Assembly (NCBI GenBank): GCA_021734025.1
Contig: JAIPJS010000007.1
Span: 28,441-92,440, forward strand
DNA from: Fidelibacterota bacterium
Lineage (GTDB): Bacteria; Fidelibacterota; JAANXI01
Direction: 5' to 3'
DNA length: 64,000 nt
Part shown: positions 3,551 to 25,203 of the stretch, one piece after another
Numbering within the stretch: position 1 is the stretch's first letter
Layout of the letters: the number at the start of each line of letters is the position of its first letter
Notes under the pieces: model-generated
Seen by the model: only the letters and a program-made list of their open reading frames with translations
What the model was told of the DNA's origin: nothing
The model's database searches: none
Made by a program: the position numbers and the translations under genes

Positions 3551-3821
3551 ATCCCACAATCACCAACAGACGTTCCAGAAATTATGCGACGATATCAGCA
3601 CCGATATCGATGCCGAACTCTGCGATGAGGTGAAAGAACATCTGAAGGACTGTCCCGATTGTCAGGTGTATGTGGATACGCTCCGTGAGACGGTGTATCT
3701 CTACCGTGGTGCAGCAAAACAGGACGAGGATGAAGGTATCCCGGACGACGTATCGGATCGGCTGTTCAAGGTGCTGAAACTTGATAAAATCCGTGAAGAC
3801 ATAAAAGGAGACTCACTATGA
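3543..3821 (+). CDS. Anti-sigma factor, zf-HC2 type (H-x3-C-x2-C: HLKDCPDCQ)
   Basis: Its ATG overlaps the sigma-factor stop (ATGAATAA), the typical sigma/anti-sigma coupling. Small acidic protein carrying the HxxxCxxC motif. Confidence 0.6.
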   Translation: MNKSHNHQQTFQKLCDDISTDIDAELCDEVKEHLKDCPDCQVYVDTLRETVYLYRGAAKQDEDEGIPDDVSDRLFKVLKLDKIREDIKGDSL

Positions 3822-4018
3822 ATGAAAACACAACTGATCGCGTACTTCGTGTCATTATTGGACTGGTTCTTTTAGCGATTGGCATATTTGGATTACAGGG
3901 TACGCTGGCATGGATTCTTGGAATTGTCGGTGGTATCCTTGCGGTGACCGGACTCACCGGTTTTTGCCTGCTGTATAAGCTGCTCGGGATCTCTACAAAA
4001 AAGGCCACCGAAAAGTAG
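3818..4018 (+). CDS. DUF2892 (YgaP-like) small inner-membrane protein
   Basis: Two TM helices and the motif LTGLTGFCLLYKLLGIST. ATGA overlap with the stop of the upstream gene. Confidence 0.6.
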   Translation: MNENTTDRVLRVIIGLVLLAIGIFGLQGTLAWILGIVGGILAVTGLTGFCLLYKLLGISTKKATEK

Positions 4019-4099
4019 GACCGCTGAATGTTGAAGCAACTGACCAGACTGCAGGCGACGCAAAACTAACATCGACAAAGCATCGGGATTTCTGAGATA

Positions 4100-4462
4100 G
4101 TGGAAGAGACACGCTTTGCGCTAAGCACAAACGACTATAAAAATCTGTCCAATGATTCGTTTGGCCAGAGCCATTACTTTCAGGTCTATCGGATAACCGG
4201 TAACGACGAGGTGACGCTGGTCGATACCCTGGAAAATGTATTATTTATGCAGGCTTGTGACATCCAGGGGCGTGCCGAACATCTGCACGGGTTGCTCAGC
4301 GAAGTTCCCTATCTGATGGGGCACGGGTTTGAGGAGCAAATTCAACAAAAACTCACCAATTCGGGACACGTATTGATAGAAGTGAAGCCGGGGAAACTGG
4401 ATCATGTGTTGGAACAGATCAAAAACGGGGAATTGTTACCGGGTCAAACCAAAAGGAACTGA
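4100..4462 (+). CDS. NifB/NifX-family (dinitrogenase FeMo-cofactor-binding-like) small protein
   Basis: SFGQSHYFQVYRI matches the HFGxAxxFxIYE pattern of PF02579. About 120 aa. Confidence 0.5.
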   Translation: MEETRFALSTNDYKNLSNDSFGQSHYFQVYRITGNDEVTLVDTLENVLFMQACDIQGRAEHLHGLLSEVPYLMGHGFEEQIQQKLTNSGHVLIEVKPGKLDHVLEQIKNGELLPGQTKRN

Positions 4463-4467
4463 ATACA

Positions 4468-4977
4468 GTGAAATACTTGCAAAATCCATGGATTAAATTT
4501 TCCCTTGTCATTGTAGTGGCCGGATTATTCCTCTGGCAGGTAACGGGGAAAACGTCGGACGCAGCCAGCGCGGCGGATTTTACCCTGACGAACCAGCATG
4601 GCGAAGAGATTAGTCTCAGCGATTACCGGGGCGAGGTCGTCATCCTGGACTTTTGGGCAACCTGGTGTCCACCGTGTAAGGCCGAGATTCCCGGCTTTGT
4701 GGACCTGTACGAAAAATACGGAGACGAAAATCTGGAGATCATCGGGATATCTCTGGACCGGGATGGCTGGAACGCGGTTCGTCCTTTCCTGGAGGAATAC
4801 GACGTGAACTATCCGGTGGCGTTAGGCAATCAGCAATTGGTGGAGCAGTACGGGAATATTCGGAGTATACCTACAACGTTTGTCATTGGAAAAGACGGGG
4901 AAATCCGGCGGAAATATGTGGGCTTCCGGGAGGATGTAGTATTTGAGCAGGATTACCGCGAATTTGTTTCCGAATGA
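4468..4977 (+). CDS. TlpA/ResA-like thiol:disulfide oxidoreductase (thioredoxin fold, WCPPC)
   Basis: N-terminal TM/signal segment. WATWCPPCKAEIP active site. IIGISLD. Confidence 0.8.
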   Translation: MKYLQNPWIKFSLVIVVAGLFLWQVTGKTSDAASAADFTLTNQHGEEISLSDYRGEVVILDFWATWCPPCKAEIPGFVDLYEKYGDENLEIIGISLDRDGWNAVRPFLEEYDVNYPVALGNQQLVEQYGNIRSIPTTFVIGKDGEIRRKYVGFREDVVFEQDYREFVSE

Positions 4978-5033
4978 AATGTGAACGCTCTTGAGACGAT
5001 TTATATAACAATTCAACGGCAGTAAACGAACGA

Positions 5034-5078
5034 CAGGCGTAGATGTTGAAAACATTTACGCCTGTTCTCATTTTTAAT
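5034..5078 (+). terminator. Rho-independent terminator (stem acaggcgta/tacgcctgt followed by a T-run)
   Basis: Hairpin 5034-5066, then tctcattttt...ttttt. Confidence 0.5.
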
Positions 5079-5413
5079 AATAATTTTTGTCTTTTTCTCT
5101 TTGGGTATAATTAAACAGAACCCCAATCCACCGGATCGCCGGAAGGATATTTCCGGGAAATTGTTTATATTTTCAACAGCTGAGAACTGAGCACCCGTCC
5201 TAAAACGGTTTAAAGAGGAGGCTGGGCCCGGAGATAGGATTTGGATTACAATGAGATTGCTTCGGAATCAAAAAGCGTTATTTAAAAAGGGTTGGTACAA
5301 AATTTGAAGTTTTATTTACACAATTCAGACCATTTTTATTCCGGAGTCTTTATCACCGGGCCTGAAATTTTCGAGATGTAATACATTCAACGCCATGATG
5401 AAAGGAGCAAGTT

Positions 5414-6709
5414 ATGGCAAATATATTTGACAAGATGGCAGCCATCCGATCAGATATTTGCAGCGAACGAAGCCTGTTACTAACGGAAAAGGGCGATGAA
5501 CAACTGGATACCGTCACCGTGAAGCAAGCGCACGGCGGTATGCGCGGCGTAAAAGCGATGATCTGTGATACATCGCTAGTGGAGCCGGACAAGGGATTGA
5601 TAATCCGGGGCTACCCACTCCTGGAGATTAAAGATCTCTGGCCGGAAGATGTTTTTCTCCTGTTATTGACCGGGGAAAAGCCGACGGAGGAAGATCGGGC
5701 GGATCTGCTGAAGGAATATGATAAGCGCGCCGAGATACCCGATCACGTCTGGGATGTTCTGCGCGGGATGGCAAAAGACAGCCATCCGATGACCATGCTC
5801 AGCACCGGAATTATGGCACTGGAAAATGAGAGCGTGTTTGACGAGAAGTATAACGAAGGCGTGGAAAAGACCGATTACTGGAAGTACTACCTGGAAGATG
5901 CGTTGAATCTTCTGGCGAAACTACCCGGCCTGGCTGCGGGCATTTATAAAATCCGATTTGACAAAGGTGAGCCGGTTGGCTGGACAAAAGGGCTAGACTG
6001 GGGCGCCAATTATGCCAAGATGCTTGGCGTGTCGGACAAGGAAGACTTTACGGAACTTATGCGCCTCTACCTGATGTTCCACTGTGACCATGAAGGCGGT
6101 AACGTGTCGGCGAATACGTGCCACACGGTCGGATCAGCGCTGTCGAACGCGTATTACTCTGTTTCCGCAGGATTAAACGGTTTGGCTGGTTTCCTCCACG
6201 GGATGGCCAACCAGGAATGCCTGGGCTGGATACTGGAAGTCATGGATAAGTTCGACGGTACACCCAGTGAAGATCAGCTGCGCGATTTCGCCTGGGAAAC
6301 TCTGAAATCGGGTAAAGTAATTCCCGGATACGGACATGCCGTATTACGCGTAACCGACCCACGATTCAAGGGTTTTCTGGAATTCGGTAAAGAACATCTG
6401 CCCGAAGATCCGGTATTTAAAACAGTGCATCACGTCTATAACGTGGTGCCTGATGTGCTTAAGGAATTCTCCGAAGAGCGCGTGAAAGCCGGCAAAAATC
6501 CGATCGGTAATCCATGGCCAAACGTGGACGCCGGATCCGGATCACTGCTCTATCATTACGGATTAACGGAATTCTCGTACTACACCGTACTGTTCGGGAT
6601 CAGCCGGGCCATGGGGATGCTCTCGCAGCTCGTGCTAAACCGTGCACTCGGGGTTCCGATTACCCGTCCGAAATCGGTTGGGACAAATTACATCAAGAAT
6701 AACGTCTGA
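5414..6709 (+). CDS. gltA: Citrate synthase
   Basis: GGMRG, HCDHEGGNVS, LHGMANQ and the catalytic His/Asp context. 431 aa. Confidence 0.9.
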   Translation: MANIFDKMAAIRSDICSERSLLLTEKGDEQLDTVTVKQAHGGMRGVKAMICDTSLVEPDKGLIIRGYPLLEIKDLWPEDVFLLLLTGEKPTEEDRADLLKEYDKRAEIPDHVWDVLRGMAKDSHPMTMLSTGIMALENESVFDEKYNEGVEKTDYWKYYLEDALNLLAKLPGLAAGIYKIRFDKGEPVGWTKGLDWGANYAKMLGVSDKEDFTELMRLYLMFHCDHEGGNVSANTCHTVGSALSNAYYSVSAGLNGLAGFLHGMANQECLGWILEVMDKFDGTPSEDQLRDFAWETLKSGKVIPGYGHAVLRVTDPRFKGFLEFGKEHLPEDPVFKTVHHVYNVVPDVLKEFSEERVKAGKNPIGNPWPNVDAGSGSLLYHYGLTEFSYYTVLFGISRAMGMLSQLVLNRALGVPITRPKSVGTNYIKNNV

Positions 6710-8586: not shown

Positions 8587-9216
8587 ATGGTGCCCAAACG
8601 AGTCGATAAAGAAGCCCGAAGACGTACTATCCTCAACGCGGCTATGGAGATTTTCTCAAAGAAAGGGCTTGCGGGTACAACTATCCAGGAAATTGCTGAG
8701 CAGGCCGAGATAGGCAAGGGAACCGTCTACGAATACTTCGACAGTAAGGATGCTATCCTCGCTGGCGCCTTCGATTATCTTATGGAGGAAATGAGTTCAT
8801 TTTTTGTTCGGGAAATCCGGGGCGATATGTCACCGGAAGAAAAGCTCCGGAGTTTTTTCCAGGGTATGACACAATTTATGGGAAGCACCCACGGTGATGT
8901 CGCTGAAATGCTGCTTGTCTTCTGGGCTGAGGGTATTCTGGAAAGTCCGGTGAATAACGCAGGGGCGGTACCCGGGAGTTTTGATCTGGAATCGATATAC
9001 ACCGAGTACAGTGCCATTCTAACGGACATTATCAAAGAGGGAAAACGAACCGGCGATTTCCGGTCTGACGTTAACAGCGAACATCTGGCGGCCGCTATTA
9101 TCGGTTCGCTGGATGGGTTAATGCTGCAGTGGGTGATCTACCAGAAGGATTTTCCGTTGGAAAATATTGCTGAATCGTACGTGGATATGGTGTTGAAGGG
9201 GGTACAAGCGCAATGA
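8587..9216 (+). CDS. TetR/AcrR family transcriptional regulator
   Basis: Helix-turn-helix ILNAAMEIFSKKGLAGTTIQEIAEQAEIGKGTVYEYF. Confidence 0.85.
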   Translation: MVPKRVDKEARRRTILNAAMEIFSKKGLAGTTIQEIAEQAEIGKGTVYEYFDSKDAILAGAFDYLMEEMSSFFVREIRGDMSPEEKLRSFFQGMTQFMGSTHGDVAEMLLVFWAEGILESPVNNAGAVPGSFDLESIYTEYSAILTDIIKEGKRTGDFRSDVNSEHLAAAIIGSLDGLMLQWVIYQKDFPLENIAESYVDMVLKGVQAQ

Positions 9217-9287
9217 GGGATTTCCAGAGATTCGATGGGCTTCCCATCGCTGGGAGAAAATGTAATTTTTGGAACTGGAGTTCGATT

Positions 9288-10034
9288 ATGCAACGAGTTT
9301 TGTTGGGAATTGTGGTAACACTGGTTATGGTGGCAACGGTGACCGCCCAGCAGCCGGATGCCCGGGAGATTGTCCGGAAAATAGATCGGCTGTACCGGAG
9401 CGAGTCCAGTTATGCGGAGATGGAGATGCATATCGTCACGCCGCACTGGGAACGGACGCTGCGGATGAAAACCTGGACCCAGGGAACGGAGAAGACGTTT
9501 ATCCGGATTACCGCACCGAAAAAGGAAGCGGGTACGGCGACACTACGCATCGGGAACGAGATGTGGAATTTCTTGCCGAACACGAACAAGGTGATGAAAA
9601 TTCCGCCGTCGATGATGATGGGCTCCTGGATGGGATCGGATTTTACCAATGATGACCTGGTGAAGGAGTTTTCGTTGCTGGAAGATTATACCTTCGAACT
9701 TATTGACCCTGAAGATGCGGAAGACGGGTACCTCTACATTCAGGCCGAACCGAAGGACGGTACCCCCATCATCTGGGGCAAACAGATAATCAAAATCCGG
9801 GCGGAAGATTATATCCCGGTTCGGGAGGAATATTACGACGAGGGCGGCACTTTGATGCGGGTGATGAACTTTAAGGATATTACTACTTTCGACGGGAGGC
9901 AAATTCCGGCAGTGATGGAACTAATTCCGCAGGAGGAAGAAGGCAAAAGAACCGAGCTGCGGTATCTGGACGCCGAGTTCAACACCGACATCGATGACAA
10001 TATTTTTACCCTCCGCAACCTGCGCTCCTACTAA
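9288..10034 (+). CDS. LolA-like outer-membrane lipoprotein-sorting / DUF-type periplasmic protein associated with MacB-type ABC exporters
   Basis: Signal peptide MQRVLLGIVVTLVMVATVTAQQ. The motif block RITAPKKEAGTATLRIGNEMWNFLPNTNKVMKIP...GSDFTNDDL is typical of LolA_like proteins (PF17131). Sits in an operon with FtsX permeases. Confidence 0.6.
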   Translation: MQRVLLGIVVTLVMVATVTAQQPDAREIVRKIDRLYRSESSYAEMEMHIVTPHWERTLRMKTWTQGTEKTFIRITAPKKEAGTATLRIGNEMWNFLPNTNKVMKIPPSMMMGSWMGSDFTNDDLVKEFSLLEDYTFELIDPEDAEDGYLYIQAEPKDGTPIIWGKQIIKIRAEDYIPVREEYYDEGGTLMRVMNFKDITTFDGRQIPAVMELIPQEEEGKRTELRYLDAEFNTDIDDNIFTLRNLRSY

Positions 10035-10057
10035 TTGATAGAATACGGATAAATAAT

Positions 10058-10579
10058 GATTAAACACCGAAGTCACTGAAAAAAAATTAAACACTGAGAG
10101 ACACCGAGAAAACCACCGAAAAGCACTGAATATGACTGAATTGCTCTATCAGGATTTAACGAAGAAAATTCGGCAGGCGGCGTACGACGTCCACTCATAT
10201 TTTGGCGCCGGTTTTCTGGAAAAGGTGTACGAAAATGCATTGGTTTACGAGTTGAAAAAGTCGGGAGTATCCTGCATATCTCAGAGAAAGATAGACGTAT
10301 ATTACGAGGACAAAATCGTCGGAGAATATTATGCCGATATTTTAGTCGAGCGCAAAATTATAATCGAATTAAAGACGGTTGCAGATATCCAAAAAATCCA
10401 TTTGGCGCAATTGAAGAACTATTTGAAGGCTACGCAGTTCAAACTGGGATTATTGATCAATTTCGGTAGCAGTAAGTTACAGTTCAAACGAGTGGTCTTA
10501 TGAATCGGGCGGTTTTTACAAAGTTTTATTGTTTGTTTTGTGCTTTTCTCAGTGTTTTCGGTGTATTTCGGTGTTTAAT
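10058..10579. mobile_element. GxxExxY gene cassette flanked by inverted arrays of a degenerate approximately 10-bp repeat (AMCACYGARA). Left array 10058-10126 and right array 10540-10579.
   Basis: Left ATTAAACACCGAA...AACACTGAGA...AAAGCAC matches the reverse complement of the right gtgcttttctcagtgttttcggtgtatttcggtgtttaat. The enclosed gene is visibly AT-richer than its neighbours and interrupts the LolA-like/FtsX operon. Confidence 0.4.
10132..10503 (+). CDS. GxxExxY family protein (PD-(D/E)xK-like, TIGR04256-type)
   Basis: GEYYADILVERKIIIELK plus the overall about-123-aa pattern of the family. Confidence 0.75.
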   Translation: MTELLYQDLTKKIRQAAYDVHSYFGAGFLEKVYENALVYELKKSGVSCISQRKIDVYYEDKIVGEYYADILVERKIIIELKTVADIQKIHLAQLKNYLKATQFKLGLLINFGSSKLQFKRVVL

Positions 10580-10596
10580 ATGAGGGTACTCTAAAC

Positions 10597-11808
10597 ATGT
10601 TTAAAATTGCCTTCAGAAATATTTTCCGGCAGAAGCGCCGCACGATTCTGACCATGTTGACCATGTTCGGTGGTTTTGTGCTGTCGGCGTTTTCTATCGG
10701 ATATGCCGACGGGACCTATTCCTATATCATCGATCTGTTTACCCGGAATCAGATGGGACACGTCCAGATTCATCAGGGCAATTACCTGGACCGGCCTTCC
10801 CTGTATAAAACCATCGAAGATTACGTAAACGTAGGCGATACTGTTCAGGCCGTTGATCGGGTGCAGGAATGGGCGCCGCGACTCTATTCCTCGGGGCTGG
10901 CGTCAGTCGGAGATAAAACCGCCGGTGTACGCGCGATCGGCGTTGATCCGCAGCTGGAGCATGCGGCCACGGATTTCCGGGATAAGGTCAAACAGGGGCG
11001 CTACCTCTCGGACGAACCCTCCCACGAGGTGATGTTGGGTACAGGTCTCGCGGATATACTAAACGCTGAAGTCGGCGATACCACAGTCATCGTATCCCAG
11101 GGAGCTGACGGTTCCATCGCCAACGATCTGTACCACGTTGTGGGCATTGTCGACCGGGGCGACCAGATGGAAAATCGGACGGGCTATTTTCTCCATTTGA
11201 AGGATGCGCAGGAGCTGTTTGTCCTGCCGAACCAGGTACATGAGATCATCGTAGTCGCCAACAGTATCCATGGCGTCCGGGAGATAGCCAGAACCATCGA
11301 CGGCGCACTCAACAACGAAAACCTGCAGGTCAAACCGTGGATGGAGATCGCCAGAACCTTTTATAAAACCATGATGGCCGACCAGCAGGGGATGTGGATT
11401 ATGCTCTTCGTTATCATCCTCATCGTGGCCATTGGTGTATTGAATACGGTACTGATGTCCGTACTGGAACGGACCCGTGAGTACGGCGTGCTAAAAGCCA
11501 TGGGCACCCGGCCCAATGAGGTATTCAGAATGGTCCTGTACGAAGTGTCCATAATGGCCGTGTTTAGTGTGATACTCGGCGCATTGCTGGCTATAGGACT
11601 GAACTCCTATTTCTCCATTCACGGCATCCCGCTGCCCACGCCGCTGGACTGGGGTGGCATCCAGATCAATTGGATGTATACGGAGAACAGTCTGCGAAGT
11701 ATTACGCTACCGACAATCACCGTGATCATCACTGCGCTGATCGTCAGCGTTTTTCCCGCAATTAAGGCGGCGAGAATTGCACCGGCGCAAGCCATGAGAA
11801 TGCACTAG
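10597..11808 (+). CDS. ABC transporter permease, FtsX/MacB-like
   Basis: N-terminal FRNIFRQKRRTILTMLTM, a large periplasmic loop, and C-terminal FtsX helices. Confidence 0.85.
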   Translation: MFKIAFRNIFRQKRRTILTMLTMFGGFVLSAFSIGYADGTYSYIIDLFTRNQMGHVQIHQGNYLDRPSLYKTIEDYVNVGDTVQAVDRVQEWAPRLYSSGLASVGDKTAGVRAIGVDPQLEHAATDFRDKVKQGRYLSDEPSHEVMLGTGLADILNAEVGDTTVIVSQGADGSIANDLYHVVGIVDRGDQMENRTGYFLHLKDAQELFVLPNQVHEIIVVANSIHGVREIARTIDGALNNENLQVKPWMEIARTFYKTMMADQQGMWIMLFVIILIVAIGVLNTVLMSVLERTREYGVLKAMGTRPNEVFRMVLYEVSIMAVFSVILGALLAIGLNSYFSIHGIPLPTPLDWGGIQINWMYTENSLRSITLPTITVIITALIVSVFPAIKAARIAPAQAMRMH

Positions 11809-11818
11809 GGAATCGGAT

Positions 11819-13045
11819 ATGGGCATATTTATCAAACTGGCGTGGCGTAATCTCTTTCGGAATAGTCGCCGGACCATCCTGGCGAGTCTGGCCATCGGGG
11901 TGGGACTGGCGGCGCTAATCTTCACCGATGCGCTGGTCAAAGGCATGGAAGACAATATGATCCAGTCCGCCACTGCATCGTTTCTCGGCGAGGGACAAAT
12001 CCACCGGGAAGGCTACCGCAAAACCCAGGAAGTGGAAATGACCATCGCCAACCTGGACACGGTCATCCGGCAGCTGGACAATTCGGATATCGTGGCAGAA
12101 TACACCAGGCGAATGATGTCTTTCGGTATGGCGACCTCGCCGTCCAATGTGCAGGCTGTCAACATTGTGGGGGTGGATCCTGCGCAGGAACAGCCCCTCT
12201 CACAAATTGATGAAGCTGTTGTGGAGGGTAATTATTTTATAGGAAATAATTCCAGAGATATCCTGATCGGTAAAGAGCTGGCGGAAATTCTGAAGGTTGA
12301 GCTGGGCAAGCGCCTGGTGGTAACCCTGGCGGAGGCGGAAACCGGTGACCTGGTCCAGGAGATGTTTCGCATTTCCGGGATCTTCCGGTTCGGCATCGAT
12401 GAAATGGACCGTGGGATGGCGTTTATCCGTCTGCCCAAGGCGCAATCAATGTTGGGACTCCAGGGTGAAGCACACGAAATTGCTATTAAATTTTCGCAGC
12501 AGGGTATCGGGCAGGATCAGGATAATCCGTTCTGGAGGCAGTTCTCGAAATACGGCAACGAAGCCCTTGGATGGATCGAACTGCAGCCGCAACTGGCATC
12601 CATGATGGAATATTCCCGGTTCAGTACGTTCTTCGTTGGAATAATCCTGTTCGGCGTGGTGGTGCTCGGCATCATCAATACGCTGTTTATGTCGCTCCAT
12701 GAACGGATGTTTGAGTTTGGCGTTCTCAGGGCTGTTGGCACCAAACCGGTCGAAATGGGAAAACTTATCGTGTACGAGGCGGCGGCGCTCTCGGTGGTAA
12801 GTATTATAGTCGGTATAGTACTTGGTTATCTTATTACGTGGATTACCATGGTAAACGGCATCGACTATACCGGAATCCAGTTTGCCGGCGTCACCTTCCG
12901 GAAGATGCTCTATCCGGTGATGACTTGGCGCCAGTTCGTGGAATACCCGGTTTACGTATTCCTGTTCACGTCAATAACCGGACTCTATCCGGCTTGGTAT
13001 GCTGCCCGGATGCAGCCGGCGGAGGCGATGCGGAAAAGCTTCTGA
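11819..13045 (+). CDS. ABC transporter permease, FtsX/MacB-like (second copy)
   Basis: WRNLFRNSRRTILASLAIGVG. Same architecture as the first copy. Confidence 0.85.
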   Translation: MGIFIKLAWRNLFRNSRRTILASLAIGVGLAALIFTDALVKGMEDNMIQSATASFLGEGQIHREGYRKTQEVEMTIANLDTVIRQLDNSDIVAEYTRRMMSFGMATSPSNVQAVNIVGVDPAQEQPLSQIDEAVVEGNYFIGNNSRDILIGKELAEILKVELGKRLVVTLAEAETGDLVQEMFRISGIFRFGIDEMDRGMAFIRLPKAQSMLGLQGEAHEIAIKFSQQGIGQDQDNPFWRQFSKYGNEALGWIELQPQLASMMEYSRFSTFFVGIILFGVVVLGIINTLFMSLHERMFEFGVLRAVGTKPVEMGKLIVYEAAALSVVSIIVGIVLGYLITWITMVNGIDYTGIQFAGVTFRKMLYPVMTWRQFVEYPVYVFLFTSITGLYPAWYAARMQPAEAMRKSF

Positions 13046-13357
13046 AAAACGGGTATAAGGGTATATGGTATAGGATTATGTCGATTCCTAATCCTAATCT
13101 TAATCATAATCTTACTCTTAATCAGAATTGTTTAAGAGGGAAAGGCAGTATGTAGAAGGGGAAACTTGTTTGTTGTTTGTAGTCGGTTGTTGGTTGTAGG
13201 AAAAAATAGCAGTGCTTTGAAAGGAAATTGAATGCTTATTAATGATTTGCCTCAAAACAACTAACAACTAACAAAAAGCGGCTGAAGCCGCGACTACCAA
13301 CACTAAAACTATAACAACCCTTGAGCACTTTGACACTAAGTAAAGGATGTAAGGCTC
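13046..13357. repeat. Mosaic intergenic repeat element, copy C, inserted between the permease and ATPase genes. Contains GGTATAAGG words, TAATCCTAATCTTAATCATAATCTTACTCTTA, GGTTGTTGGTTG words, CAACTAACAACTAACAA, hairpin gcggcTGAAgccgc + GACTACCAAC, and CTATAACAA words.
   Basis: Same module order as copies A and B. Confidence 0.55.
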
Positions 13358-14062
13358 ATGACCTCATCACAAACCGACAACGTCATCGTCACAGATGGCG
13401 TGGAGAAGACCTACGAAGATAACGGCGTGGCTGTTCACGCTGTACGGGGGATCGATCTGACTATAAAAAAGGGCGAATTCACCGCCATCGTCGGTCCATC
13501 CGGTTCCGGGAAGACCACTTTTTTGAATGTCGTCTCCGGTCTGGATACCGCTTCGAAGGGCAAAATCTGGCTGGACGGGAATCTGGTTTCAGAGATGAGC
13601 GGGAAAGAGCTCTCCGACTTCCGCCGGGATCACATCGGGTTTATCTTCCAGGCGTACAATCTGATTCCGGTCCTCTCTGTGGAGGAGAACGTCGAGTATA
13701 TCATGTTGCTTCAGGGCGTGCCCAAGGAGAAACGCCATCACCGGGTCCTGGATATCCTCGGCCAGGTCGGGCTGTCCGGCTTCGAAGATCGACTCCCCAC
13801 AAAACTCTCCGGTGGACAGCAACAGCGCGTGGCAGTAGCCCGGGCGATGGTGGCGCAGCCCTCCATGATTCTCGCTGACGAGCCGACCGCCAACCTGGAT
13901 AGCGAGACAGGCTCCGAACTGCTGGACATGATGCGTGACCTGAACGAACAGACCGGCATGACCTTCGTCTTTTCAACCCACGACGAACTCATTATGGAGC
14001 GGGCCCGGCGGCTGGTCAGGCTCAAGGATGGCCAGGTGGACAGTGATGAAGTCCGGAGTTAA
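13358..14062 (+). CDS. ABC transporter ATP-binding protein (MacB/LolD-like)
   Basis: Walker A GPSGSGKTT. Signature LSGGQQQRVAVARA. Walker B ILADEPT. Confidence 0.9.
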   Translation: MTSSQTDNVIVTDGVEKTYEDNGVAVHAVRGIDLTIKKGEFTAIVGPSGSGKTTFLNVVSGLDTASKGKIWLDGNLVSEMSGKELSDFRRDHIGFIFQAYNLIPVLSVEENVEYIMLLQGVPKEKRHHRVLDILGQVGLSGFEDRLPTKLSGGQQQRVAVARAMVAQPSMILADEPTANLDSETGSELLDMMRDLNEQTGMTFVFSTHDELIMERARRLVRLKDGQVDSDEVRS

Positions 14063-24807: not shown

Positions 24808-25203
24808 AAGAATAGCACGCAGATACACGCTGAAAAAACGGATTATCACAGATAAAACTAAGTTTTCTGATAAGAATAAACCTGAACAGATGAAGTTGGT
24901 TTTGGCATTATTCTTTTTACTTGCAAATTCCCGGGGCGAGCGCCTGGAATTCCGGCAATCTCTATAGCGGGTTTGTGACAAAAAAAGTATGTACAACAGG
25001 ATATCCACCTGCAACAGCATATCCTGAACAGTCTGGTGTCAATAAATATGAGTAGCCCCGCCATTCATGGCGGGGAATGGAATGCCGTTTCTATTTGGGG
25101 GCTTCAGCCCCCAATGTTGCTTAGTGATCGCAGAATCACTCTGCGTTCATCCGTTTTTTCGCGAACTCCGGCCTGTCGGGGGCTGCGTGCTATTCTTTAG
25201 AGG

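Follow-up and report, generated by a model that had tools for sequence, protein, structure and literature searches.

Why should a small nuclease gene, rich in AT and enclosed by a short repeat in inverted arrays, lie within an otherwise conserved operon? The question is posed by a 64,000-nucleotide stretch of DNA from a Fidelibacterota bacterium (contig JAIPJS010000007.1 of assembly GCA_021734025.1, positions 28,441 to 92,440 of the forward strand; hereafter the window), in which a gene of the GxxExxY family interrupts a LolA-like/FtsX operon. An original prediction, made from the letters of the window, saw here a small mobile or selfish cassette. We find that the gene and its arrays do form a discrete inserted cassette of a kind that recurs across phyla, but that the copy in the window appears long established rather than recently or actively mobile. 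The reading that we favor, and consider modestly probable from the comparison of sequences, is that this nuclease cassette is selfish or semi-domesticated and that its arrays are putative phased binding sites for its own protein.

The whole cassette (521 bp, 10059-10579, not assigned to a strand) sits in the spacer between a LolA-like gene (LolA_like, 9213-10034) and the first of two FtsX/MacB_PCD permease genes (FtsX1, 10597-11808; FtsX2, 11819-13045), with a TetR gene upstream and the gene for an ABC (ATP-binding cassette) ATPase downstream. The 123-aa GxxExxY gene (10132-10503, forward strand) splits this operon as had been proposed. To its left, also on the forward strand, is an array of sense units (10059-10131) that begins with the outer terminus ATTAAACACCGAA, contains six CACYGA cores (at 10065, 10074, 10092, 10102, 10114 and 10124) and ends 2 nt short of the start codon. 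To its right is an array of reverse-complement units (10540-10579, reverse strand) comprising a degenerate GTGC at 10540, three TCRGTG cores (at 10549, 10558 and 10568) and the outer terminus TTCGGTGTTTAAT. Both arrays are evident from the sequence, from array detection, from pattern statistics and from inverted-repeat pairs. The termini of the cassette form a perfect 13-nt inverted repeat (ATTAAACACCGAA, 10059-10071 versus 10567-10579), and a second pair of arms is 28 nt long and 82% complementary, confirming that inverted arrays lie on both flanks. Exact copies of the terminal 13-mer occur at these two places only, where 0.08 matches within one mismatch are expected, and two cores in 10-nt phase (CRCNGA-N4-CRCNGA) occur five times in the window against an expectation of 0.63, with three of the five flanking the GxxExxY gene. 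The decamer originally described as the repeat unit holds for the family, in which the 10-nt period is strict, but the left array in the window is more loosely spaced (9, 18, 10, 12 and 10 nt). The two flanks have a predicted duplex energy of -59 kcal/mol, compared with -38 kcal/mol for shuffled sequences (z = -5.5), and the predicted fold of the whole region pairs 10059-10081 with 10557-10579. The same locus with the same arrays is present in an independent Logan assembly (L001), and the arrays in the window are therefore not an assembly artefact.

The gene is indeed richer in AT than its neighbors. GC content is 0.37-0.40 over 10000-10600 and 0.50-0.58 on either side; the gene itself has a GC content of 0.40 and a third-position GC content (GC3) of 0.52, compared with GC3 values of 0.59-0.71 in the neighboring genes. 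The biggest deficit falls at codon position 2 (0.24 versus 0.37), so that much of the AT-richness reflects amino acid composition. No promoter-like or terminator-like sites are found inside the cassette which, together with its co-orientation with the neighboring genes, makes expression by read-through from the host operon likely. There is no match to rRNA or other Rfam families in window positions 9000-14000, and an Rfam search of the window region and 13 further loci returned only sub-threshold matches to generic hairpins, such as miRNA precursor families, and no family matching the arrays.

The encoded protein matches the PF13366 (PDDEXK_3) profile over its full length (positions 1-117 of 117, E 6e-40, 136.6 bits against a cut-off of 22) and likewise the TIGR04256 (GxxExxY) profile (positions 1-116 of 116, E 6e-42, 142.6 bits against a cut-off of 35). 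Its motif residues are G27-x-x-E30-x-x-Y33, D69, E79-x-K81 and Q93-x-x-x-Y97. An alignment of 37 sequences shows no variation at G27, E30, Y33, D69, K81, Q93 or Y97 and almost none at E79. We take the E, D, ExK and QxxxY residues to be the motif set of the RecB/Cas4-type PD-(D/E)xK nucleases. A search of the PDB by sequence alone gave no significant match. An AlphaFold2 (AF2) model of the protein (pLDDT 94, pTM 0.86) was used to search solved structures with Foldseek, for which the top matches were the Cas4 protein SSO0001 (4ic1, E 5e-4), the LHK-Exo alkaline exonuclease, the resolvase Hjc and RNA-splicing endonucleases, and included 3syy and 2eo0. On the basis of this model the protein is a minimal Cas4/RecB-like PD-(D/E)xK nuclease, whose alpha-beta-beta-beta-alpha-beta core aligns with those of solved nuclease structures and whose catalytic residues are intact. 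A weak PADLOC match of window positions 10132-10500 (residues 63-110, E 1e-5) to the candidate defence protein PDC-M36A probably reflects only the shared nuclease motif. The family is large, with 15,029 representatives (clustered at 50% identity, E <= 1e-3), and spans many phyla. Many members are about 250-290 aa long with two GxxExxY domains fused in tandem, and the existence of these fusions suggests that the single-domain proteins may act as dimers or higher oligomers. The two-domain proteins also fit with the tandem cassette duplications described below. The family and its name are already known; a superfamily survey gives the function of PF13366/TIGR04256 as unknown (PMC3424549).

If the arrays belong to the gene rather than to this locus they should recur at other GxxExxY loci, and they do so both in metagenomic relatives and in cultured bacteria. 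We fetched 80 metagenomic loci containing relatives with 46-65% identity, of which 69 were usable for flank analysis. These share a common array layout of about three units per side, sense upstream and reverse-complement downstream (for example CCACAGATAA-ACACAGATAT-ACACAGATAG, or ACACGGATGA), in hosts whose GC content ranges from 30% to 67%. The density of CRCNGA is 12.4 per kb in the sense orientation upstream and 15.4 per kb in the antisense orientation downstream, 5-6 times the 2.5 per kb found elsewhere. Upstream, 49 of about 85 core-to-core intervals measure exactly 10 nt, as do 70 of about 110 downstream, and a motif-free autocorrelation of the flanks peaks at lags 10 and 20 only. Ten nucleotides is about one turn of B-DNA. 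Inverted arrays are detected in 31-46 of the 69 relatives. At 21 of the 69 loci the complementarity between the two flanks greatly exceeds that of shuffled sequences (z < -3), and some of these loci have perfect stems of 37-45 bp. Of the 47 long array pairs that run from sense to antisense in 891 kb of fetched DNA, 46 have a GxxExxY gene between them.

The host operons are conserved and mutually unrelated, with the gene found according to lineage next to LolA/FtsX, alaS, fabD-fabG, radA, ade or gatA. It is co-oriented with both neighbors at 34 loci and opposed to both at 3. Among cultured bacteria, a finished record of Bacteroides finegoldii has the gene next to radA with CACAGAGGAC three times on each side, Bernardetia has it between ade and a guanylyltransferase gene with CACAGAGNNN units, and Sphingomonas parapaucimobilis has it between fabD and fabG with CGCGAAGG units. 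Gemmatirosa has inverted arrays around the gene and, directly downstream, a CGCGGAT hairpin without an open reading frame (ORF), and a Treponema GxxExxY gene has one unit per side. The proteins of the cultured carriers include WP_032839887 in B. finegoldii, WP_338790993 in Bernardetia and WP_347090946 in Sphingomonas.

Are such arrays simply what any small gene lodged in an operon acquires? As a control we used an unrelated family, the four-helix-bundle proteins of 23S rRNA intervening sequences (IVSs). Members were retrieved with a consensus sequence; the matches carried PF05635, and 13 loci were analyzed (within L199-L218). No four-helix-bundle genes were found in 40-kb annotated regions of Bernardetia and Prevotella. 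The PF05635 genes also lie co-directionally between host genes, for example in the order membrane fusion protein, four-helix-bundle protein, ABC ATPase, FtsX in L199. They too have inverted arrays, here of heptamers with the core T[CT][AG]GC (TYRGC), as at L199 1370-1990 and L211 690-1290; examples are ATCAGCT TTCAGCA ATTAGCA against three copies of CGCTGAA, and CTATCGGCTTTCGGCTATCGGCGTTCGGCC against GGCCGAACGCCGACTGCCGACAGCCGA, and further heptamer subtypes are GGGAATT and GGAGAGT. Array length varies slightly, with L205 having one heptamer more than L204. The autocorrelation of the PF05635 flanks is 0.377 at lag 7, against a background of about 0.25, with no peak at lag 10, and the GxxExxY flanks show the reverse. 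Array period and core are thus specific to the encoded protein family; a general need for a hairpin would not give rise to this difference.

The arrays also occur without the gene. The window itself contains an ORF-less element of CRCNGA arrays (24808-25199, not assigned to a strand), identified by array detection, inverted repeats and a predicted fold of -148 kcal/mol, that lies between convergent genes for Xaa-Pro aminopeptidase-like and ferritin-like proteins. Its outer ends form a perfect 16-nt inverted repeat (AAAGAATAGCACGCAG / CTGCGTGCTATTCTTT), and it further has sense units CGCAGATA, CACGCTGA, ACGGATTA and CACAGATA, inverted units at 25140-25160 and internal GC hairpins, and tblastn finds no GxxExxY remnant within it. 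Its units are of a CGCAGAT/CACAGAT/ACGGAT subtype, unlike those of the GxxExxY cassette in the same window. Among the fetched DNA there are 23 short ORF-less array pairs with inner lengths of 12-195 nt (L084, L115 and L123 provide examples), some of them in tandem and some retaining internal modules of full elements such as a GC-rich hairpin or the tcgcttcgcga motif. Their copy number looks modest, at three in 520 kb of unselected loci and one in the 64-kb window. Larger arrangements are also seen. L011 has two copies, 77-89% identical and separated by two host ORFs, that cease to resemble each other at the right-hand array. Composite cassettes, in which a left array is followed by the GxxExxY gene, a second left array, cargo ORF(s) and a right array, are present at L004 2867-3568, L028 2351-3058 and L067 611-1584; the cargo ORFs encode 195 aa or 119 and 183 aa, those of L004 and L067 have no Pfam or PADLOC match, and the right array has CACGAAT units. 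The number of units is polymorphic within populations (L173 versus L170).

How did the copy in the LolA-like/FtsX operon arrive, and when? The LolA-like/FtsX/FtsX/ATPase operon is conserved in 80 genomes from Poribacteria, Latescibacterota, Zixiibacteriota, Aminicenantes and other groups, a scan of GTDB with the LolA-like protein having returned other phyla only. None of these 80 orthologous operons holds the GxxExxY gene, which identifies it as an insertion in the window, and their LolA-FtsX1 gaps are mostly 12-70 nt compared with 562 nt in the window. Among Marinimicrobia, the contigs L162, L164/165 and L166/167 (FtsX1 72-74% identical) carry the gene at the same site, encoding a protein that is 66-72% identical and flanked by arrays of the window's unit type (ACACCGAA / ACACTGAA, outer end TTAAACACCGAA). 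The gene has gone from L168/169, the nearest of the relatives (FtsX1 75% identical, with synteny conserved), where a 142-nt gap (3859-4000) retains its last ~19 codons (LGLLINFGSEKLQFKRIIL*) together with the right array. This gap reads as a deletion remnant; no clean empty site was found in the close relatives. Downstream of the intact gene, L164/L165 (3566-4000) carry another left array followed by a GxxExxY pseudogene truncated to 37 codons. In L084 the LolA-like/FtsX1 spacer is occupied by a hairpin that is made of related units and lacks an ORF.

The ratio of nonsynonymous to synonymous substitution rates (dN/dS) is 0.09 between L164 and L166 and 0.05 between L170 and L180; the neighboring FtsX1 gene has similar values. 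Synonymous sites are saturated between orthologous cassettes, yet the array unit type has been kept. In other Marinimicrobia, identical proteins (P0051, P0041) are always found in the same context, between alaS and a glycosyltransferase (GT9) gene, in at least 20 samples, and these cassettes use the same CACYGAA units as the window copy. Since four related Marinimicrobia lineages hold the gene at this site with arrays of the window's unit type, and a fifth retains a remnant of it, the window copy is old, vertically inherited and under purifying selection. These comparisons indicate insertion into the operon in an ancestor of a Marinimicrobia clade followed by vertical inheritance, with decay by deletion in one lineage. 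They do not support the suggestion of a recent or active insertion. Low GC as a mark of recent horizontal transfer was considered and rejected: orthologues long resident at the site still have low GC3 (0.36-0.40 versus 0.55-0.69 in their neighbors), and the deficit in the window is largest at codon position 2.

What, then, does selection preserve in the arrays? The long hairpin foreseen for the operon mRNA is thermodynamically predicted, but the substitution pattern does not follow it. Across 18 loci, the 75 mismatches between arms comprise 13 of the sense type that would form G.U pairs, 20 of the antisense type and 42 transversions; there is no G.U bias on the transcribed strand, as would be expected were an RNA stem selected. 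At the variable core position N the identity of units at paired ranks is 0.64, compared with 0.61 across ranks, and the alaS cassettes have CACCGA in one arm opposite CACAGA or CACTGA in the other. In part of the unit spacer, same-rank units of the two arms are somewhat more alike than different-rank units. Because there is neither a G.U bias nor arm-specific complementarity at the variable core position, the predicted stem is probably not what selection maintains. The conserved features are the core and its 10-nt phase rather than the pairing. Unit subtypes (CRCAGAC, CRCAGAT, CRCGGAT, CACYGAA and others) track the relatedness of the proteins: only 5% of locus pairs share a subtype at 30-45% protein identity, but about 60% do so above 65%. 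The contig L038 has two cassettes with different subtypes and divergent proteins, and the window itself holds two unit subtypes. Together with the tracking of protein relatedness, these cases argue against a single host factor acting on all arrays.

Any explanation has to accommodate the observed anatomy of the cassette, its recurrence across phyla, the fixed polarity of its arrays and the existence of ORF-less, tandem and composite forms. We propose that the arrays are phased sites bound by the cassette's own nuclease, as a dimer or higher oligomer, and that protein on both ends, recognized together, would define and maintain the cassette. The end-bound protein might use break-and-repair to mobilize or copy the cassette to new sites, or to array sites without an ORF, leaving no target-site duplication, by a logic like that of homing or of REPIN-RAYT systems; alternatively it might protect the cassette from loss. 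Transcription reading through from the host operon would provide expression. The predicted pairing of the arrays as RNA would be a by-product, although the stem may still be processed, for instance by RNase III. A lone PD-(D/E)xK nuclease cuts but cannot join DNA, and any mobility must therefore borrow host repair. This limitation is one of several points that weigh against the proposal. About one third of the relatives have no detectable arrays, with Prevotella and Fusobacteria examples having direct repeats or none. No consistent direct repeat indicative of target-site duplication is present at the 40 termini inspected, and the inverted repeats often run past the arrays, which leaves the cassette without sharp ends. 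Nothing points to recent movement: identical proteins always lie in one context in the 20+ samples noted above, and the locus has kept its place in lineages whose proteins are about 70% identical. The association of protein with array type is correlative and is confounded by shared descent. Finally, strong purifying selection would fit a host-beneficial function equally well.

An alternative at the level of RNA is that the cassette is a module resembling an rRNA IVS. In the transcript of the operon the arrays would form a long double-stranded stem, cleavage of this stem by RNase III or by the cassette's own nuclease would follow, and the GxxExxY message would be released or insulated so that the interloper is tolerated, the arrays being kept for the stem or as RNA-binding sites. 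Such a module would explain the strong predicted flank duplexes (in the window and in the 21 of 69 loci with z < -3) and the 34 to 3 preference for co-orientation in a cassette without its own promoter. It would share its architecture with the 23S IVSs of Coxiella and Leptospira (PMC4990558), the IVS protein family itself has flanking arrays, and the nuclease fold resembles RNA-splicing endonucleases too. The observations on the arms are harder to reconcile with it: G.U-compatible mismatches are not in excess on the transcribed strand and arm-specific complementarity at the variable core position is not seen. A stem needs neither a strict 10-nt period nor a core conserved from Alphaproteobacteria to Bacteroidota, and a generic double-stranded RNA nuclease would not impose a period and core that differ by protein family. 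We regard this account as possible but rather doubtful, noting that it and the proposal of nuclease-bound arrays are not mutually exclusive.

It is also conceivable, but in our judgment unlikely, that the gene is an ordinary resident housekeeping or defence nuclease, spread by ordinary horizontal transfer, for which the arrays are operator or autoregulatory sites or the physiological substrate, and that the cassette is neither selfish nor mobile. A position stable over long divergence and many samples, dN/dS values of 0.05-0.09 comparable with FtsX1, the lack of recognizable target-site duplications and the weak match to PDC-M36A would all be natural under this view. It sits less easily with a gene that occupies unrelated conserved operons and is absent from all 80 orthologous ones, with ORF-less array pairs away from any GxxExxY gene, with duplicated copies that lose similarity at the right-hand array, with the tandem and composite forms, and with a deletion of the gene that has no visible consequence for the operon. 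It might also be suspected that the repeats arose by chance in low-complexity sequence, or through misassembly, next to an ordinary small gene, given that A-rich low complexity is common between genes and that the window's own array is irregularly spaced. This idea is scarcely credible in the face of the shuffle controls and the same sequence in an independent assembly, and it is refuted by the recurrence statistics, the arrays being found in dozens of unrelated contigs and in finished genomes.

Several known systems offer partial parallels. In REPIN-RAYT systems, the REP (repetitive extragenic palindromic)-associated tyrosine transposases (HUH/Y1, IS200/IS605-like) are flanked by inverted REP sequences. 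The GxxExxY cassette is similar in having one small nucleic-acid enzyme gene flanked by cognate inverted short repeats, in the ORF-less inverted doublets (hairpins) found elsewhere, here including 24808-25199, in the co-variation of repeat type with protein lineage, and in a gene that is vertical at a fixed locus under purifying selection without jumping in the manner of an insertion sequence (IS). It differs in encoding a PD-(D/E)xK nuclease rather than an HUH/Y1 transposase, in having tandem arrays of 10-nt units rather than a single GC-rich palindrome, in its modest ORF-less copy number and in being typically embedded in host operons. Free-standing homing endonuclease genes, such as phage seg and mob, are likewise small AT-rich nuclease genes wedged co-directionally between conserved genes, patchy among orthologous loci and with no recombinase of their own; they leave no target-site duplication, and none was recognized at the termini of the GxxExxY cassettes. 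The ORF-less array at the same spacer in L084 and the patchy distribution would be compatible with homing, but the cassette brings its own bracketing arrays and occupies many unrelated spacers rather than one conserved target. Correia/NEMIS elements, which are MITEs (miniature transposable elements with inverted repeats), resemble the ORF-less versions (inner length 12-195 nt) in being intergenic and hairpin-forming with terminal inverted repeats, and in often being co-transcribed with flanking genes; they lack the phased tandem-unit termini, target-site duplication is not seen here, and the full-length element encodes a nuclease instead of a DDE transposase. More generally, the cassette has the terminal inverted repeats of an IS- or MITE-type transposon (the 13-nt perfect and 28-nt arms) but no known class of transposase (DDE, HUH, serine or tyrosine recombinase), its sole ORF being the PF13366 nuclease.

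The protein has the fold and motif set (E, D, ExK, QxxxY) of the Cas4, RecB and lambda-exonuclease domains, with Cas4 SSO0001 as its best match, but at ~123 aa is the catalytic core only, without Fe-S cluster cysteines, helicase or CRISPR partners, or cas genes nearby. Nor is this an integron gene cassette: the neighbors are TetR, LolA-like and FtsX genes, the repeats lie on both sides of the ORF in place of a single 3' attC, and no integron integrase is found among the cassette's neighbors, the rest of the genome not having been searched for one. The 23S IVSs of Coxiella and Leptospira contain an ORF of ~120 aa, have a 28-bp terminal stem cut by RNase III and lower GC, and were acquired horizontally and then maintained vertically (PMC4990558). 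The cassette shares with them a ~120-aa ORF of unknown function within an element of ~0.4-0.5 kb whose GC lies below that of the host, a sporadic distribution with later vertical maintenance and decay of the ORF in some lineages, probable co-transcription with the interrupted host unit, and complementary termini that form a long predicted stem around the ORF; moreover, the IVS protein family has inverted short-repeat arrays at non-rRNA loci. Unlike an IVS, the cassette lies in an mRNA operon spacer between protein-coding genes instead of a 23S rRNA helix, its ORF belongs to PF13366 and not to S23p/PF05635, its units are 10-nt CRCNGA as opposed to 7-nt TYRGC, and its excision by RNase III would find no support in the substitution pattern.

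In the searchable literature, where the PF13366 family is named incidentally, we found no mention of repeats around GxxExxY/PDDEXK_3 genes, nor any description of bracketing phased arrays, miniature derivatives or the parallel with IVS proteins, although curated family descriptions may mention some of these. Family-wide, sequence-specific and helically phased arrays would provide the first concrete, testable candidate substrate for the GxxExxY nucleases. They would also explain puzzling AT-rich interloper genes and hairpin spacers in the conserved operons of uncultured phyla. If the specificity of protein for array is real, the natural subtypes (GAT, GAC, GAA and GAG variants) would constitute a ready set of orthogonal protein/site pairs. 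The parallel architecture of the PF05635 loci suggests a general principle that could unify rRNA IVSs with operon-embedded cassettes. Extending this, we put forward tentatively, and while inclining against it, the possibility that the GxxExxY (10-nt CRCNGA) and four-helix-bundle (7-nt TYRGC) cassettes are two branches of one unrecognized class of prokaryotic selfish element. Such an element would consist of a single gene for a small nucleic-acid-binding protein bracketed by inverted arrays of its own phased units and lodged co-directionally in operons or rRNA, would leave ORF-less hairpins, and would persist or spread by host repair without a transposase; classical rRNA IVSs, and possibly heptamer arrays in operon spacers, would be special cases.

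Other repeat arrays were encountered in the course of these comparisons. A second odd spacer in the window's operon, between FtsX2 and the ATPase gene (13046-13357; 312 nt, GC ~0.36, no ORF), carries a hexamer/heptamer array (CTAATCC TAATCT TAATCA ...) and also inverted GTTGTTR/TCGGTTG heptamer arrays around a ~55-nt loop; these heptamers look like the arrays flanking four-helix-bundle genes. In orthologues the same spacer is 11 nt long (L164, L166) or holds other repeat-rich inserts (408 nt in L162, 160 nt in L168), and the hexamer block is reversed in L162. Inverted arrays that lack an ORF and are built from different short tandem units (AACGTATN, GGAGTGAT, GACGGTA/AGACGG, CGTAGTTT and TCAGCAG heptamers) are frequent in the orthologous operon spacers of other phyla, at L136 2515-2864, L113 4660-4905, L135 3706-3866 and 5073-5221, L153 3724-3868 and in the FtsX1-FtsX2 spacers of L083, L088 and L145. 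They suggest that hairpins of inverted short tandem repeats make up a wider class in the spacers of operons.

The gene content of the operon also varies within the Marinimicrobia clade: a gene for an S-adenosylmethionine (SAM)-dependent methyltransferase lies between the TetR and LolA-like genes in L162 (2011-2733), L164 (1572-2264) and L166 (1897-2610) and is not present in the window or in L168. In six Poribacteria genomes (L087, L096, L098, L099, L104 and L107) an insertion of ~2.2 kb (about 3715-5990 in the 6.7-kb loci) lies between the LolA-like and FtsX1 genes, occupying the spacer that holds the GxxExxY cassette in Marinimicrobia.

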